From positions 565-64,564 of the forward strand of contig OY764073.1 in the NCBI GenBank assembly GCA_963668035.1: a stretch of DNA of 64,000 nucleotides, read 5' to 3'. A model generated the notes under the pieces. It was not told where the DNA came from, made no database searches, and worked only from the letters and a program-made list of their open reading frames with translations. This DNA is from Candidatus Poribacteria bacterium (GTDB lineage: Bacteria; Poribacteria; WGA-4E; WGA-3G). The translations under genes were made by a program, and so were the position numbers. This document shows, piece by piece, positions 19,311-33,159 of the stretch (position 1 is its first letter; each line of letters begins with the position of its first letter).

Positions 19311-20633
19311 TCAATGAGATTTTTTGGTGGAAGACTTTCTGGCGGCGAACTTCGCACGCAGTGCCTTGTGTGCTTGCGCTACCGGAATAGTATCTGTCCA
19401 TGTGATCTCACCTCTGATGTCGCGGCGGGTGAATTCCTTGTTGTGGTCGATAGTCCCACTGATGAGTTCCATCCGTGGGATAGAAACTTCTTCCGCGTCG
19501 CCAAAGACGAAGAGCGTAGCGTTTCCTTCGTGGGCGGGGCACTCCATGTTAAATTCGGATATCCGCGCGCGGTCTTTGCTTACTAACAGATGTCCCCTGA
19601 ATTGCTTCGGCGTGAGGTAGACACCTTCGTTGTAAGCTTGCGATCCTTTGAGGTGCTTTATTTCCAGGGTTAATGTGTTGAGTGTATGCTTTTGTGCGTT
19701 TAATACCGCCTTTAGCGTGTTAAACTCTGCATCAAGGTATGTAGCCAACGCTGTTTCGAGATCATCAACGTTTTCAGTTAGCTCCTTTTCGAGTTTATCG
19801 AGCCGCGCATCAAAAGTAGCGGTTAGTTCCTTTTTGAATTCATTGAGCCGCGCATCAAAGTTTGACACCAGTTCTTCTAACGCTGTTATTGTCGTCGTAA
19901 GTTCCGCGAGCCTCGTCTTAAGGTCTCCCGATAAACCTTCCAATGTAGTCGTTACCTCTGTCAGTGAAGCCAGGACTTCGGCAAGTTCCTTTTTCAGGTT
20001 AGCTAAGTCCTTTTCGGTCTCAGTGGCAAGGTCCGCCGGCAATAAGGCAACTTTCTTCTTCACTGAGCTAAGTTTATCCTCTACCGCTTCTTGTAGATCT
20101 CCGATTTCCTGTTTGATTTTCTGTTCTTCGAACCGCTGCTGGAGCTCCCCGATAGTCCGCCGTAGAGTTGCTTGTTCCATCTCGTCTGTCATCTTCGCGA
20201 CGGCCTCGGTTTCTTCTCTTATCTCAAGGTTGAAATCTGCGTGAAATTGGAAAATGATCTCGTAATAATCTGGTGAGACTGCTCGTAAACACGCGTAAGC
20301 ACCTTGCTGTCCCGATAGAGAGACGGTTGCCCCAGGATGAAACTGTTGAAGGAGCGGGAGCATCTGCCGCACATCAAACGCCCATGTGTCCCCGACAACG
20401 TTGTCGTGCCTGGGCGGTAAAAGCGATACAAGTGCCTCGTCAACAAGCATCCGCTGAGGGTGTGCCGGTTTGAGATCGGACAGATTCTTATATTGTGGTG
20501 GCGGCTTCCAGTGGGCTGCTATTGTCAATACTCGCTCGAGACCGCACTGTCCAACGTTGGCATGTAGTCCGAACATGGATAACGCGGCACAGCAGAAGAC
20601 TAAAACGTTAGCAAATCTAAATGAACGATTCAT
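19311..20633 (-). CDS. Secreted selenoprotein N (SELENON)-like protein interrupted by a ~190-aa coiled coil; lacks the Sec-containing C-terminal domain
   Basis: LLQQFHP...QGAYACLRAVSPDYYEIIFQFHADFNL and TPKQFRGHLLVSKD...IPRMEL...EITW match, from memory, SELENON blocks LLSMFHP...[27 protein letters not shown] and SPAQFTGHIILSKD...IPQMEL...EIKW. It has an N-terminal signal peptide. Confidence 0.75.
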   Translation of the reverse strand: MNRSFRFANVLVFCCAALSMFGLHANVGQCGLERVLTIAAHWKPPPQYKNLSDLKPAHPQRMLVDEALVSLLPPRHDNVVGDTWAFDVRQMLPLLQQFHPGATVSLSGQQGAYACLRAVSPDYYEIIFQFHADFNLEIREETEAVAKMTDEMEQATLRRTIGELQQRFEEQKIKQEIGDLQEAVEDKLSSVKKKVALLPADLATETEKDLANLKKELAEVLASLTEVTTTLEGLSGDLKTRLAELTTTITALEELVSNFDARLNEFKKELTATFDARLDKLEKELTENVDDLETALATYLDAEFNTLKAVLNAQKHTLNTLTLEIKHLKGSQAYNEGVYLTPKQFRGHLLVSKDRARISEFNMECPAHEGNATLFVFGDAEEVSIPRMELISGTIDHNKEFTRRDIRGEITWTDTIPVAQAHKALRAKFAARKSSTKKSH

Positions 20634-20726
20634 TATTTTCTCCCTATCCGCGGCGTGTTTGTGCCGCAAATTGTTAGTTTTAGGTTATTCAATCGAAATA
20701 TACCGCTGAAAACAGGCAAAAAATCA

Positions 20727-22973
20727 TCACTTTGTAGGTGGCGGTGCAAAGTCTTTTTGTATAAAGACGAACGCCTTATCTGTTGTTTTGCTGCTCCCGA
20801 ATGGACCAAAAGAAGGAGTGTAGTCAGTAATTTCACCGTCCCCGTAGAGTTCTTTTAACTGATCAAGTTCATCCTTAAAGTTTGAAGGGAGTCGCCGCTC
20901 AAGCTCAGGTAAGGTCAGAACACCATCGGGGTCGTCTCTATTTTCTAACAGCGTCAACAATGCCAAGGTAAATGGGGAATGTTCAATACCGGCCTGGACC
21001 TCCTCCTTCCCGCCGGCACTCACGTACCAGCGTGTCTTGACTTTCAGCGTCTCCGCAAGATCTAATTGTGGTTGGTTCGGCATTGCGTTTACTGCCTGGA
21101 AAACTGTTGAGGGACCTTTGTCGAGGGCGATGTTATGGTCAAACGTCCCGCCATAATCGACATCAAGTATCACCATGATGCGTTCGCACGGAAAATTGTT
21201 AAGAGCAGATTTTAATCTGCTATATGAGAGGTAGGTGGTAAGATTCGCATCCGCATCTGGAAGCTGTGACTCTGTTCCAGCGATGTGTCCCTCCTGCAAG
21301 GTTTTGTCAAAATGTCCATGTCCATTGAAATAGACGAGCAGTTGATCGCCGGGATCATATTTCTTTTCTTTGTATTCGGCGAGTGCGGCAAGTATCTGCT
21401 TTATCGTCAGGTTTGTGCGAATATCGACGTTAAACCCATATCGGTTTTGCAATTTCGCGCCGATAGCCCTTGCATCCGCTATTGGTGTGTAGGAATCGCC
21501 CCAATGCGTATACGTGTCCGTGGCGAACAGGAGTGCGTAATCCGTGCCTGTTCTGACAAATCCACTTCTATCGTAAGTACCATCGAAGGGTGATATTAGG
21601 TTAGGGTTGGCTACTTGCCATCCGTCAGCTTTGAGTGCTTCCATAAGAGGATTTTTCGTGTTTTCTACTTTCTCTGCCGGCACCCAAGTATGTTTGGACG
21701 TGGAAGCTGTTTCTATAGAAGCAAGTCTTCTGCGCATATCTTGCAACTGCGTCTGCAGATCTTCTACCAAATCTTCCTGTGTGCCTTTGCGTTTTAAAAC
21801 CTGCTTCATTCCGTTGGTGTTCGTCAAGGTGAGTGTGTTTCCGTTTAGATTCGCCTCCCAATTTTCTATGTTATCGTTTCCAAAGAGCCAATTCCGGGGA
21901 ATTATTTTCTGGACATCCTCTTCCGTGATACCGGACGACAACCAGAAGTCTTCGGGTTCAAGTCGGATCTCAAGATTCTCTTGAGCCGTGATGATGGTCC
22001 CTTCTGTCGATGTGAAGGAGCTGTTGTAGGAACCTTTTTCTGCCAGACTTACTTCTGGTAACAAAGCCATACCGCCCCCTAAATCGATCTTTATATCAAA
22101 CGCAAGTATCCGGGCCCAAGAACCGTTCGTAAAGAAAATAAGGTCATTCTGGATGTCCTTGGCCTCTATGCTATCCCAGAAGAATTCTTTACCAAGGTAT
22201 TCTATTAAAGGTTTCCCATCTAAAGGTTTCCCATTTACCGTTATCCTTTCCGCCAGGTATTCCATTAAAGGTTTCCCATCAGGTGTTGGCATTTTCAAAA
22301 AACGCTCTGTAACAGGTTTACCATCAATAGATACCATTTCCCAAGAGTCAGCTATAATTTTGCCGGACTGAACTGCCGCTTCCAGGTCTGCCTTGAGTTT
22401 AGCCAGTTCAGCTGCATAAGTCTCTCGTTCCTTTTTCCACTTTGCTTTTTCTTTAACGAGCTGCTGTTCTAATGCATTAGACTGCTCCAACGCGTTTTGT
22501 AACGCTTTAAGTGACTCATATTCGTCGAGTTGGACCACTTCAACTGCCTCTGCTTTTACAACTGACTCATCTTCGGCGAGTTCAGTGAAGTTTTTCCCTT
22601 GTCTTTGGGGAGTATTGAAGACAGACTTGACATCCCTAAAAATCTTCTGGGCGACCTCTCTCTTAGCAGCTGCTATAGTATCTTCTAACGTGCTATCCAC
22701 GGGAATACGCAACTGCTCGCCGGGGTAGATGAAGTGCGGATTTGTGAAGTCGTTATACTTGCTCAGCTCACGCCACCGGAGCGGGTCTTTGAGATGTTCT
22801 TGGCAGAGGTTCCAAAGCGTATCACCTTTTTTGATGGTGATGAGTATAGTGCTTTGATCTCCCTCGTCGTGTGGGGTGATCCGTGCCGAGGTGGATAAGA
22901 CATAAACGGCACAGAGTGCTGTGCAGATGTAGAGGATCAGCGTTATCTTCAGCGTGCTTTTGATAATTTTCAT
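20727..22973 (-). CDS. Mosaic protein: signal/anchor + LysM + coiled coil + lipocalin-like + caspase-like (C14) domain with catalytic Cys replaced by Asp
   Basis: DYALLFATD, DQLLVYFNGHG, VILDVDYGG, HSPFT. The start was reassigned to MKIIKS, which has an AAGGAG RBS. Confidence 0.85.
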   Translation of the reverse strand: MKIIKSTLKITLILYICTALCAVYVLSTSARITPHDEGDQSTILITIKKGDTLWNLCQEHLKDPLRWRELSKYNDFTNPHFIYPGEQLRIPVDSTLEDTIAAAKREVAQKIFRDVKSVFNTPQRQGKNFTELAEDESVVKAEAVEVVQLDEYESLKALQNALEQSNALEQQLVKEKAKWKKERETYAAELAKLKADLEAAVQSGKIIADSWEMVSIDGKPVTERFLKMPTPDGKPLMEYLAERITVNGKPLDGKPLIEYLGKEFFWDSIEAKDIQNDLIFFTNGSWARILAFDIKIDLGGGMALLPEVSLAEKGSYNSSFTSTEGTIITAQENLEIRLEPEDFWLSSGITEEDVQKIIPRNWLFGNDNIENWEANLNGNTLTLTNTNGMKQVLKRKGTQEDLVEDLQTQLQDMRRRLASIETASTSKHTWVPAEKVENTKNPLMEALKADGWQVANPNLISPFDGTYDRSGFVRTGTDYALLFATDTYTHWGDSYTPIADARAIGAKLQNRYGFNVDIRTNLTIKQILAALAEYKEKKYDPGDQLLVYFNGHGHFDKTLQEGHIAGTESQLPDADANLTTYLSYSRLKSALNNFPCERIMVILDVDYGGTFDHNIALDKGPSTVFQAVNAMPNQPQLDLAETLKVKTRWYVSAGGKEEVQAGIEHSPFTLALLTLLENRDDPDGVLTLPELERRLPSNFKDELDQLKELYGDGEITDYTPSFGPFGSSKTTDKAFVFIQKDFAPPPTK

Positions 22974-23065
22974 ACTTTTCTCCTTATTCTCGGCGTATTT
23001 GTGCCGGGAAGTGTTATTTTTAGGTTGTTGTATTGAAACATAGGGTTCAAAACAGTCAAAGATCC

Positions 23066-32652: not shown

Positions 32653-32880
32653 TTACTTGTACTCGGTCCACGGGTCCGTGATCGTCGAGCCATTAGGGCA
32701 TGTCACTTCCTCTTTGTACTCTACTCTATCCGAAAACTCCTTCTTATACCGAACAGTCTCGCAACCATCCGCATCGGTGACTCGAAATTCCATCACCCAC
32801 TCCGGATCATCGCCGTTAAAACAGGATATAGTGAATACGCATAGGAGGATTATTAAATAACTAACAACTTTCATTTTCAT
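32653..32880 (-). CDS. Small lipoprotein, paralog 2
   Basis: MKMKVVSYLIILLCVFTISC leader, GGAG RBS, mature DADGC.TVRYKK..SDRVEYKE..TCP. Confidence 0.75.
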   Translation of the reverse strand: MKMKVVSYLIILLCVFTISCFNGDDPEWVMEFRVTDADGCETVRYKKEFSDRVEYKEEVTCPNGSTITDPWTEYK

Positions 32881-32940
32881 ATAGCTTCTCTCCGAAAAGT
32901 TATGCCTAAAAACGCATGGTTTTCCAGCAGCGTGTTAAAA

Positions 32941-33159
32941 TCAATTGTACTCGGTCCAGGTGCGCGTGGTGGACGGGCGATCAGGACATGTTATAACCTC
33001 TTTGTATTCTACTCTATCTGACAGCACCTTCTTATACCGCACGGTCTTGCAACCGTCCGCGTCTACGACTTCATAGTCTACCACCCACTCCCGGACCGCA
33101 CAGGATATAGTGAATACGCATAGAAGGATTATTAAATAACTAACAACTTTCATTTTCAT
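32941..33159 (-). CDS. Small lipoprotein, paralog 1
   Basis: Identical 20-aa leader and upstream DNA to 32653-32880, with a diverged mature part. Confidence 0.75.
   Translation of the reverse strand: MKMKVVSYLIILLCVFTISCAVREWVVDYEVVDADGCKTVRYKKVLSDRVEYKEVITCPDRPSTTRTWTEYN

Follow-up and report, generated by a model that had tools for sequence, protein, structure and literature searches.

Work on bacterial homologues of caspases has dealt almost exclusively with effectors of death or defence in the cytoplasm, and a preliminary description of the DNA analyzed here, made from its letters alone, fairly stated that the best-studied of them are cytoplasmic. MaOC1 is a known orthocaspase, and exported Arg/Lys-directed cysteine peptidases of clan CD with immunoglobulin (Ig)-like or adhesin modules are represented by the gingipains and clostripain. 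The present work concerns a cluster of eleven genes on the minus strand (positions 19311-33159) of a 64,000-nucleotide (nt) stretch of the genome of a Candidatus Poribacteria bacterium, the whole of which is called the window. Five of the genes encode proteins with a Peptidase_C14 (C14) domain, and all eleven products carry export-type N-termini.

Exported relatives have been noted before. In a survey of prokaryotic metacaspases, a minority of sequences show a probable signal-peptide N-terminal helix and domains that are extracellular or bind the wall, one operon can contain as many as three metacaspase genes, and catalytic residues are missing from some copies (PMC3501461); bacterial metacaspases and orthocaspases are also surveyed in PMC8283722. 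Pseudo-orthocaspases, as their description reports, have a replaced dyad and two conserved pocket Asp residues, some with a twin-arginine translocation (TAT)-like signal and one clade with a C-terminal DUF4384 domain (PMC6426788). DUF4384 is given among orthocaspase accessory domains (PMC7475262), is reported fused to C14 proteins (PMC6426788, PMC7475262), and is reported on bacterial kinases (bioRxiv 10.1101/2025.01.12.632604). A genomic island of Psychroflexus torquis is reported to carry four WD40-containing metacaspases, several of them with signal peptides (PMC3914696). In DdvA, an anti-sigma factor of Myxococcus xanthus, a periplasmic TPR-CHAT region with a resting His-Cys site was described and regulated cleavage proposed (PMC11506125). 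Caspase domains are reported to be enriched in Poribacteria (PMC7081726).

The literature search found no paper describing the gene set reported here, its pairing of a C14 protein with an LPP20/LpoB-like/DUF4384 protein, or an experiment on an exported C14 protein; the supplements of PMC3501461 and PMC7081726, which lay outside the search, may list LPP20 or 'flagellar' neighbours or poribacterial caspase counts. The word 'undescribed' in the preliminary description thus stands for the gene set and falls for the idea of an exported caspase homologue, which surveys had noted before (PMC3501461, PMC6426788 and PMC3914696).

Exported C14 proteins and their partners

The eleven open reading frames (ORFs) are co-oriented and were named g11 (transcribed first) to g1 (transcribed last); all gene coordinates below refer to the minus strand. 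Intergenic gaps measure 60-418 nt, and a ribosome-binding site of the GGAG/AGGAG type lies ahead of the ATG start of each of the 11 genes, which together with the ORF list and the separate starts bears out the row of eleven genes first described, except that g1, formerly begun at TTG 20669, actually starts at 20633. Every N-terminus has two or three Lys/Arg and a hydrophobic core (best 10-residue Kyte-Doolittle mean 2.3-3.4) followed by AxA-like sites or a lipobox. The export calls come only from our own heuristic on these basic residues, core and cleavage motifs, and by this heuristic the signal peptide or lipobox attributed earlier to all products was found in 11 of 11. The lipoboxes of g6 (IIGC/MTGC), g8 (FMAC), g10 and g11 (TISC in both) mark four lipoproteins. 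Neither the ORF list nor Pfam revealed a sigma or anti-sigma factor, a kinase or any other cytoplasmic output among the eleven genes, and since no cytoplasmic component is encoded, we take the set to do its job entirely within the envelope or at the cell surface.

The C14 proteins differ in what precedes the C14 domain. The minimal one is g5 (26726..27733; 335 amino acids, aa). An all-beta N-terminal module, Y, stands before the C14 domain in g9 (30876..32234; 452 aa) and g4 (25102..26529; 475 aa), and g2 (20727..22973; 748 aa) consists of LysM, coiled coil, module X, coiled coil and C14; g3 (23066..25009; 647 aa) is a g2 paralogue which, by alignment, has the g2 build without LysM. All five passed the Pfam cut-off of Peptidase_C14 (PF00656; 21.4 bits), in agreement with their first classification as C14-like: g2 scored 49.1 bits (E 7.7e-13), g3 49.2 (6.9e-13), g4 65.1 (9.6e-18), g5 63.2 (3.7e-17) and g9 55.9 (6.2e-15). 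Their top NCBIfam match was the EACC1-associated caspase family NF047832, with 52.5-68.6 bits against a cut-off of 140; scores so far under the cut-off indicate that the five proteins are not members of this family. CHAT was a weak secondary match in C14 proteins with module Y (best E 0.0016; 13 of 29 family members).

When the five proteins were aligned, the dyad His was invariant and the Cys column contained Asp (g2, g3), Ser (g4) or Cys (g5, g9). The His-Cys dyad is therefore complete in g5 (His108/Cys162) and g9 (His260/Cys314) and incomplete in g2 (His552/Asp606), g3 (His451/Asp505) and g4 (His270/Ser324). The codon at the Cys position is TGC in g5 (27248-27250) and g9 (31293-31295), GAT in g2 (21156-21158; His codon at 21318-21320) and g3 (23495-23497), and TCT in g4 (25558-25560). 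Being two or three bases away from TGC, these substitutions are not single-base errors. At the protein level g3 is 86% identical to g2 and the other C14 copies are 51-55% identical to it. A total of 63 homologues was found for g5, and the dyad was complete in 44 of 65 C14 homologues.

The C14 family profile matched the yeast metacaspase Yca1 (E 8.8e-4) and caspase-1, and the Asp of a 'PIADA' motif aligned with the Asp of Yca1 'CINDA'. In metacaspase structures the acidic S1 pocket of the Arg/Lys-directed enzymes is formed by this residue and by a second Asp, two positions ahead of the Cys; the Yca1 alignment supports the first of the two. All five C14 proteins of the cluster have both pocket Asp residues, and so do 43 of the 44 homologues with His-Cys and 20 of the 21 with a substituted dyad. 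Retention of the pocket in the dyad-altered copies suggests a combination of Arg/Lys-directed enzymes and non-cutting binders, and the sequences suggest that the C14 proteins of the cluster are metacaspase-type, Arg/Lys-directed peptidases, whose cleavage itself we infer.

The preliminary description had made its proposal depend on a caspase fold, and this fold was found. The only C14 protein modelled was g9, for which AlphaFold, supplied with 29 sequences, gave a mean predicted local distance difference test (pLDDT) score of 82.5. In VIA comparisons the g9 model aligned with MALT1 over 209 residues (Z 20.4, root-mean-square deviation (rmsd) 3.0; Foldseek E 8.6e-10) and scored Z 20.0 with caspase-9, 19.9 with caspase-3, and 19.6 and 19.5 with the Arabidopsis metacaspases 4 (AtMC4) and 9; the Z value with Geobacter GSU0716 was 17.7. 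For the five domains as a set the assignment comes from the hidden Markov model (HMM) matches given above. After the catalytic Cys of g9 the model has a disordered linker (residues 325-346, pLDDT < 50). The post-Cys linker is where caspases and metacaspases are processed, and it contains 10 Lys/Arg in g9 (of 45 residues), 8 in g4 (of 44), 3 in g5 and 2 each in g2 and g3.

The LysM domain proposed for a C14 protein was confirmed in g2 (PF01476, residues ~45-91; 33.1 bits against a cut-off of 20.9, E 5.3e-8). Module X of g2 and g3 corresponds to the entire g8, the three being linked by the DNA repeat families D4 and D13. For module Y, delimited in the g9 model, the best fold matches reached only Z 6.5-6.8 (pneumolysin domain 4 and the PepT2 ectodomain). 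The former assignment of this module to DUF1036 was abandoned, as 0 of the 29 proteins with the module matched DUF1036 at E up to 5. Signal-peptide-like N-termini were called by the same heuristic in 54 of 65 members of the C14 family; the remaining 11 start within known modules, as if the gene calls had been truncated.

The principal partner is g7 (28420..30057; 545 aa), which combines LPP20-like, helical, LpoB/FlgO-like and DUF4384 sandwich parts. The two proteins previously described as DUF4384-like, g7 (40.0 bits, E 4.4e-10) and the 154-aa lipoprotein g6 (27807..28271; 31.1 bits, E 2.5e-7), both passed the cut-off of PF14326 (27 bits) and, as shown below, DUF4384 proteins are true conserved partners of C14. 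The g6 protein is a lipoprotein copy of the DUF4384 sandwich alone, being a partial duplicate of the g7 C-terminus (147 nt at 83% identity, family D11). Among 41 aligned members of the g7 family DUF4384 was detected in 40, LPP20 (PF02169) in 15 and FlgO (PF17680) in 9; g7 itself gave no LPP20 or FlgO match in Pfam at E up to 0.1. Weak matches of the family profile to the Protein Data Bank (PDB) included the LPP20-family structure 4kzs (E 0.0015) and FlgO chains (E 0.017). The g7 model (mean pLDDT 86.7) has an N-terminal domain like the LPP20-family protein HP1454 followed by a long helical part, an alpha/beta domain (residues 251-362) resembling the C-terminal domain of LpoB (Z 10.9, rmsd 3.1, 105 residues aligned) and the DUF4384 beta-sandwich (residues 403-545), with macroglobulin, Ig-like and FnIII-like matches at Z ~8. 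Foldseek matched the model to HP1454, LpoB and TolB, and a weak similarity to PorU was recorded (Z 7.0). By its model g7 looks like a periplasmic or outer-membrane scaffold. A protease trap or inhibitor role for g7 and g6, considered from the macroglobulin-like matches, was left as an idea, since Z ~8 is that of a common sandwich. The family is broad, with 345 cluster representatives at E up to 1e-3.

Directly upstream of g7 lies g8 (30236..30802), a 188-aa protein. The lipoprotein part of its earlier designation as a lipocalin-like lipoprotein stands by the lipobox, and the lipocalin-like part is a lead only: g8 has no Pfam or NCBIfam family, and its Atlas language-model neighbours, some named lipocalin-like, score 0.88-0.91, with recognition under the mark of the tool. 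It is conserved beside g7 in six fetched loci (L003, L005, L012, L013, L014, L015). The row opens with the two mini-lipoproteins already recognized as such, g11 (32941..33159; 72 aa) and its paralogue g10 (32653..32880; 75 aa; repeat families D12 and D14). The orthologous cluster L012 contains two ORFs that are 62-65% identical to g10 and 72-80% identical to g11.

The last gene, g1 (19311..20633; 440 aa), encodes an export-type N-terminus and a globular domain whose two parts (residues ~34-137 and 337-392) are separated by ~200 residues of coiled coil. Both parts align to a single uninterrupted domain of P0235, which is a sigma factor of the extracytoplasmic function (ECF) class followed by a transmembrane (TM) helix and a g1-type ectodomain, its ORF ending '...ESC'. 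Identity between the globular domain of g1 and the ectodomain of the sigma-TM fusions P0234-P0238 was 34% over 134 residues (E 4e-22). The region of P0235 at residues ~318-576 was matched by eight stand-alone ORFs of the same genome. In the two of these that were read, L097 (G000:C1:1008900-1010300, minus strand) and L098 (G000:C1:642200-643600, plus strand), the frame runs ...LDDESC-TGA-GTGK... and continues for ~100 open codons; their in-frame TGA, standing in the SC-U-G context that marks selenoprotein N (SelN), suggests SelN-like selenoproteins. The product of g1 ends before the ESC-TGA-G region and has no SC-U-G motif. Its description as SelN-like consequently stands for the N-terminal domain, shared with the SC-TGA-G ORFs, and fails for the motif and the part behind it, both of which are absent. 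In Pfam g1 had coiled-coil matches only, all under the cut-off, and it had no Atlas neighbour; its PDB matches (apolipoprotein and other coiled coils) were judged compositional, no SelN structure was among the PDB matches of g1 or P0235, and the literature search found no paper on selenoprotein N in Poribacteria.

Homologues of g1 adjoin the cluster in L012, L013 and L014, several of 26 g1 homologues are on contigs equal in size to contigs carrying C14 homologues, and in the database protein P0227 (717 aa) a full g1 is joined to a C14 domain of the His-Ser type. Its place at the cluster end in three other species and the fusion in P0227 make g1 part of the system. Also observed in the genome were ~45 ORFs of ~650-1280 aa with the ECF sigma region of P0235, a TM helix and a linker, followed by different large C-terminal parts (for example at G000:C1:2233351-2281601 and 3909266-3914311), many of them in tandem at 2.23-2.28 Mb; as judged from their domain order, they are a large expansion of putative membrane-tethered sigma fusions. 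Among the listed matches of the P0235 sigma region in the genome, none extends into the g1-type domain.

Conservation and evolution of the gene set

The whole genome, a single closed contig of 5,239,836 bases, contains six C14 matches and three DUF4384 matches. As all three DUF4384 genes adjoin C14 genes, the co-occurrence of the two is not due to chance. The product of the sixth C14 gene, at 4.41 Mb, is 910 aa long and combines a signal peptide with WD40 repeats, Ig-like repeats and a C14 domain whose dyad is His-Cys; the gene lies directly upstream of a 570-aa g7-type gene. Near this second pair there are two lipoprotein-like ORFs (300 and 358 aa) for which Pfam has no family, together with a protein that has a hydrophobic segment at its N-terminus and what looks by eye like a TolB-type propeller (coordinates noted there: L001:3851-4753 and L001:12252-13328).

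Of 61 sampled genomes of the genus, 36 had a C14 match and 19 a g7-type match. Comparison of coordinates placed the g7-type match at most ~2.5 kb from a C14 match in 17 of the 19, and the two exceptions are at contig ends. A third arrangement in the genus has a g7-type gene followed by two or three tandem C14 genes (frames of ~545-880 aa), the g7-type protein being 35-37% identical to the 570-aa one and the C14 proteins 24-29% identical to g5; it was seen at G008:C1:2413426-2422770, G010:C48:114435-121752, G058:C16:35733-43838 and G023:C47:82673-87464.

Fetched loci were scored with custom HMMs. A g7-type gene stood beside C14 in five of five loci titled Poribacteria and in seven of nine loci from another search, and, in the DNA covered, in just 1 of 73 other loci of this C14 subfamily, which were mostly from Cytophagales, with some Bryobacteraceae and others, and many of which are short. 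The one positive, L072, belongs to an Ignavibacteriae metagenome-assembled genome (MAG) labelled 'fen' and has the same pair of WD40-Ig-C14 and g7-type genes. A metagenome scan with the g7 alignment returned three loci, of which L090 carries this pair, L091 extends only a short way upstream and L092 has no C14 in the DNA covered; a scan of genome contigs with g5 alone returned no relative.

The cluster occurs at the same site, with lactonase and/or sulfatase flanks and two to five C14 genes, in three other poribacterial species (L012, L013 and L014). L012 has five C14 genes at ~50% protein identity, and its lactonase and sulfatase genes are placed as in the window; the order is lactonase, C14(Y, H/S), two mini-lipoproteins, C14(Y, H/C), g8, g7, C14(H/D), C14(R/D), C14(X, N/C), g1, sulfatase. 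L013 contains two C14 genes (H/C and H/D) followed by g8, g7 and g1, and L014 contains one C14 gene, g8, two g7 genes and a g1-like gene. From this synteny the conserved core is C14(Y), g8, g7 and g1.

In a quick maximum-likelihood tree of 76 C14 domains, the five domains of the cluster and their closest database relatives formed one starred clade of eight rows. Of the 54 rows of the poribacterial cluster clade 24 had a substituted dyad, against none of the 20 rows of the WD40/Bacteroidota clade, and 6-9 changes are needed to explain these substitutions. Every multi-copy cluster with scorable copies has at least one His-Cys copy. The 3' ~660 nt of g2 and g3 (20727-21390 and 23066-23730) are 98-100% identical, against 84-93% upstream, which points to recent duplication and gene conversion; the regions upstream of the two starts are 96% alike (family D8).

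Four public runs, which belong to three studies and two of which are labelled sponge metagenome, contain the stretch in their contigs, mostly at identities of at least 99%, and a 1730-nt contig of run X2 covers 23888-25617, bridging the g4/g3 junction. Several bins had no cover in single runs, to which we attach no weight, and among 11 listed runs there was no RNA run with the stretch. Since the cluster occupies the same site in three other species, it is not an assembly artefact; with the single-contig genome and the metagenome contigs, this supports the reality of the tandem copies, which the preliminary description had left to be checked. The 196-nt g5-g4 spacer includes two short palindromic elements (26556-26582 and 26668-26696) that are repeated genome-wide and look like repetitive extragenic palindromic (REP)-type elements; the spacer has 47 genome matches, including a head-to-tail run at G000:C1:1586667-1586783. 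The repetition of the palindromes accounts for a spike of 275-700x depth at 26428-26674 in the metagenome contigs.

Around the cluster are sulfatase genes, 4 of the ~43 in the genome (44 listed matches) lying at genome positions 18-51 kb. Elsewhere in the window, 14103-16823 (plus strand) encodes a protein of 906 aa that has TPR repeats and DUF3857 and whose core is transglutaminase-like, a transglutaminase-like gene being also near the cluster in L013; 39359-40474 (minus strand) encodes a protein of 371 aa in which an RDD and a PspA/IM30 domain are joined; and 1-6174 (plus strand) is an open frame of > 2050 aa running off the window start. The flanks of L014 (75-2675 and 14260-16752) encode a Type ISP restriction-modification enzyme and, on the opposite strand, an 830-aa CARDB/Ig-like protein with a C14 domain.

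Proposed mechanism and alternative explanations

With a probability of roughly 55%, we favour the reading that the locus is a conserved, fast-evolving, extracytoplasmic C14 set of a poribacterial sponge symbiont working by one general mechanism. The C14 zymogens would leave the cytoplasm by the Sec route and would be held at the membrane or at the peptidoglycan or wall by LysM, modules X and Y, the lipoproteins and g7. They would be activated when the basic disordered linker behind the catalytic Cys is cut, and the activated enzymes would then cleave exported or external proteins after Arg or Lys. The dyad-substituted paralogues would bind the same kind of ligand without cutting and could act as regulators, decoys or adhesin-like binders, the set being continually remade by duplication, module shuffling and gene conversion.

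Several points weigh against this reading. A scan of the cluster found 15 promoter-like sites against 17.7 in shuffles and 11 terminator-like sites against 16.0, and sites no commoner than in shuffles do not delimit the operon structure. The Ser at the nucleophile position of g4 might still be active, 'dead' being assumed for this copy. The fold matches of the g7 model (LpoB-like, Z 10.9; sandwich, Z ~8) assign no function. Presence in only 36 and 19 of the 61 genus genomes (C14 and g7-type, respectively) indicates an accessory system, whose role may differ between lineages, and the single g7-type gene in the 73 other loci indicates that the C14 enzyme does not generally need the g7 partner.

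From the same material we infer, as possibilities, the cascade, the decoy or regulator roles and the action at a host interface of the preliminary description. Against a host interface, the C14 subfamily is found in records not titled host-associated (Cyclobacteriaceae, Bryobacteraceae), and the C14 and DUF4384-protein pair is found in the 'fen' MAG.

The alternative that comes next supposes that the C14 proteins are a digestive set, that is, secreted or surface Arg/Lys endopeptidases cutting the cores of sponge-matrix glycoproteins desulfated by the neighbouring sulfatases, with the binding modules and dead copies as adhesins; the gingipains would be the analogy, as secreted Arg/Lys endopeptidases. 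The sulfatases around the cluster, with the lactonase/sulfatase context kept in L012, L013 and L014, agree with such a role, as do the stand-alone Cytophagales relatives with signal peptide, Ig-like domains and C14, the N-terminal modules of binding type (LysM, and CARDB/Ig in L014) and the enrichment of caspase domains in Poribacteria among eukaryote-like domains reported in PMC7081726. The kept neighbourhood may, however, just reflect vertical inheritance of one chromosomal site, and LysM would point to the bacterium's own wall. Moreover, the dyad is incomplete in 24 of the 54 proteins in the poribacterial clade, which is unusual for feeding enzymes, the conserved partners have periplasmic-scaffold-like folds and lipid anchors, and the ten flanking ORFs scanned included no outer-membrane secretion signal or secretion-system gene. 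We consider a digestive set unlikely.

Regulation in the envelope can be conceived in two ways, and both strike us as considerably improbable. In one, the locus would be an extracytoplasmic counterpart of caspase regulation, with initiator and effector zymogens and dead brakes assembled on the LPP20/LpoB-like/DUF4384 platform, responding to an envelope or host cue and cutting ectodomains of the SelN N-terminal type; cFLIP is the analogy for a catalytically dead caspase-like brake. If this were true, the platform would be ring- or platform-forming at the outer membrane, the ectodomain targets would be g1 or tethered sigma factors, and the outcome would be signalling or surface remodelling of the sponge symbiont.

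In the other, the exported C14 proteins would be an envelope sensor, acting as site-1 protease on membrane-tethered regulators or responding to a danger or phage cue, with the dead paralogues and g1 as pseudo-substrates or regulators. DdvA, with a periplasmic caspase-fold domain proposed to start regulated proteolysis (PMC11506125), is a precedent and is among the fold matches of g9 (Z 9.5). The g1 domain is homologous to sigma-TM ectodomains in a genome with ~45 sigma-TM fusion ORFs, and the patchy, accessory and fast-evolving distribution resembles that of conflict systems. On the other hand, the link rests on one shared domain, which the listed sigma-region matches never reach and which is matched only by short stand-alone ORFs; the cluster lacks any cytoplasmic output, as noted above; and the flanking-ORF scan (a PADLOC search was not made) found no known defence gene adjoining the cluster here.

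Non-hydrolytic roles are known in clan CD, as in the glycosylphosphatidylinositol (GPI) transamidase, asparaginyl ligases and PorU. The C14 proteins could likewise be transpeptidases or sorting enzymes acting on wall or surface polymers, or a binding or adhesin family with incidental catalysis. The g9 fold matches OaAEP1 ligase (Z 16.8) and GPI transamidase (Z 15.8), the g7 model its weak PorU counterpart; LysM of g2 and the LpoB-like domain of g7 are both peptidoglycan-linked, and dyad loss is often tolerated. Such fold matches are expected for any clan CD domain, however, and are below the caspase and metacaspase scores, and the analysis identified no family of sorting signals. Retention of the dyad, in 44 of 65 homologues, 20 of 20 WD40/Bacteroidota rows and 6 of 6 WD40-type proteins scored, shows selection on catalysis. 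We hold a non-hydrolytic function to be very improbable.

Mis-assembly of one or two genes, or decay of the substituted copies to pseudogenes, deserves next to no credence: the near-identical 3' ends of g2 and g3 would fit it, and short-read contigs fragment across repeats and no listed piece spans the whole of the 7.4 kb compared, but the genome is one contig, the copies have diverged (g2/g3 84-93% upstream, others 51-55% to g2), all are open with their own start sites, an equivalent five-C14 cluster exists in a species at ~50% protein identity, the substituted copies are intact in several species with pocket residues kept, and the X2 contig bridges the g4/g3 junction.

As judged from its genes, the locus appears to provide a defined and conserved set with the whole system outside the cytoplasm, natural active/inactive pairs and a partner conserved across phyla. 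The g5 and g9 enzymes, the dyad variants g2, g3 and g4, and the candidate scaffolds, inhibitors or substrates g7, g8 and g1 are objects for experiment, and offer a route to asking the role of exported metacaspases and the purpose of DUF4384. They may also help explain the enrichment of caspase domains in Poribacteria (PMC7081726). If the set is digestive the finding is a modest one; if it is regulatory, caspase-type control would be extended to the bacterial envelope.

Comparison with known systems

The proteins of the cluster share with bacterial metacaspases the C14 HMM match, the caspase fold, the His-Cys dyad (g5, g9), the acidic pocket, the occurrence of accessory domains including WD40, and multi-gene operons. 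They differ from bacterial metacaspases in general in that every member is of export type, five are in one row and three are dyad-substituted, and in the presence of LysM, X and Y modules and of the conserved non-protease partners g7, g8 and g1. The EACC1-associated caspases (NF047832) are the best NCBIfam match, yet no EACC1 or NTPase genes are present here.

Exported Arg/Lys-directed peptidases of the gingipain and clostripain type have the same fold, the g9 model reaching Z 9.2 with RgpB and Kgp and 9.1 with clostripain. They belong to different families (C25 and C11), their fold scores are far weaker than those of caspases and metacaspases, and they have their own secretion signals and prodomains.

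DdvA resembles the cluster in having a caspase-fold domain in the periplasm. It differs in that its domain is CHAT and not C14, is fused to a TM anti-sigma module and TPR, and has neither tandem paralogues nor a DUF4384 partner; conversely, Pfam revealed none of the DdvA-type domains (anti-sigma, TM helix, TPR, CHAT) in the five C14 proteins. The Psychroflexus torquis island differs in being mobile and in carrying CHASE2 and LytTR genes, and its published account, in the part devoted to the island, describes no DUF4384/LPP20 partner or dyad-substituted set (PMC3914696).

Pseudo-orthocaspases, as portrayed in PMC6426788, are like the substituted copies of the cluster in their replaced dyad, in the conservation of both pocket Asp residues and in the association with DUF4384. 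According to the same source they are mainly Tyr-Ser (also QC and YN), are encoded by single genes and are found in cyanobacteria. In the poribacterial clusters, by contrast, the substitutions are His-Asp, His-Ser and others, they recur in tandem arrays beside complete-dyad copies, and DUF4384 is carried on a separate protein.

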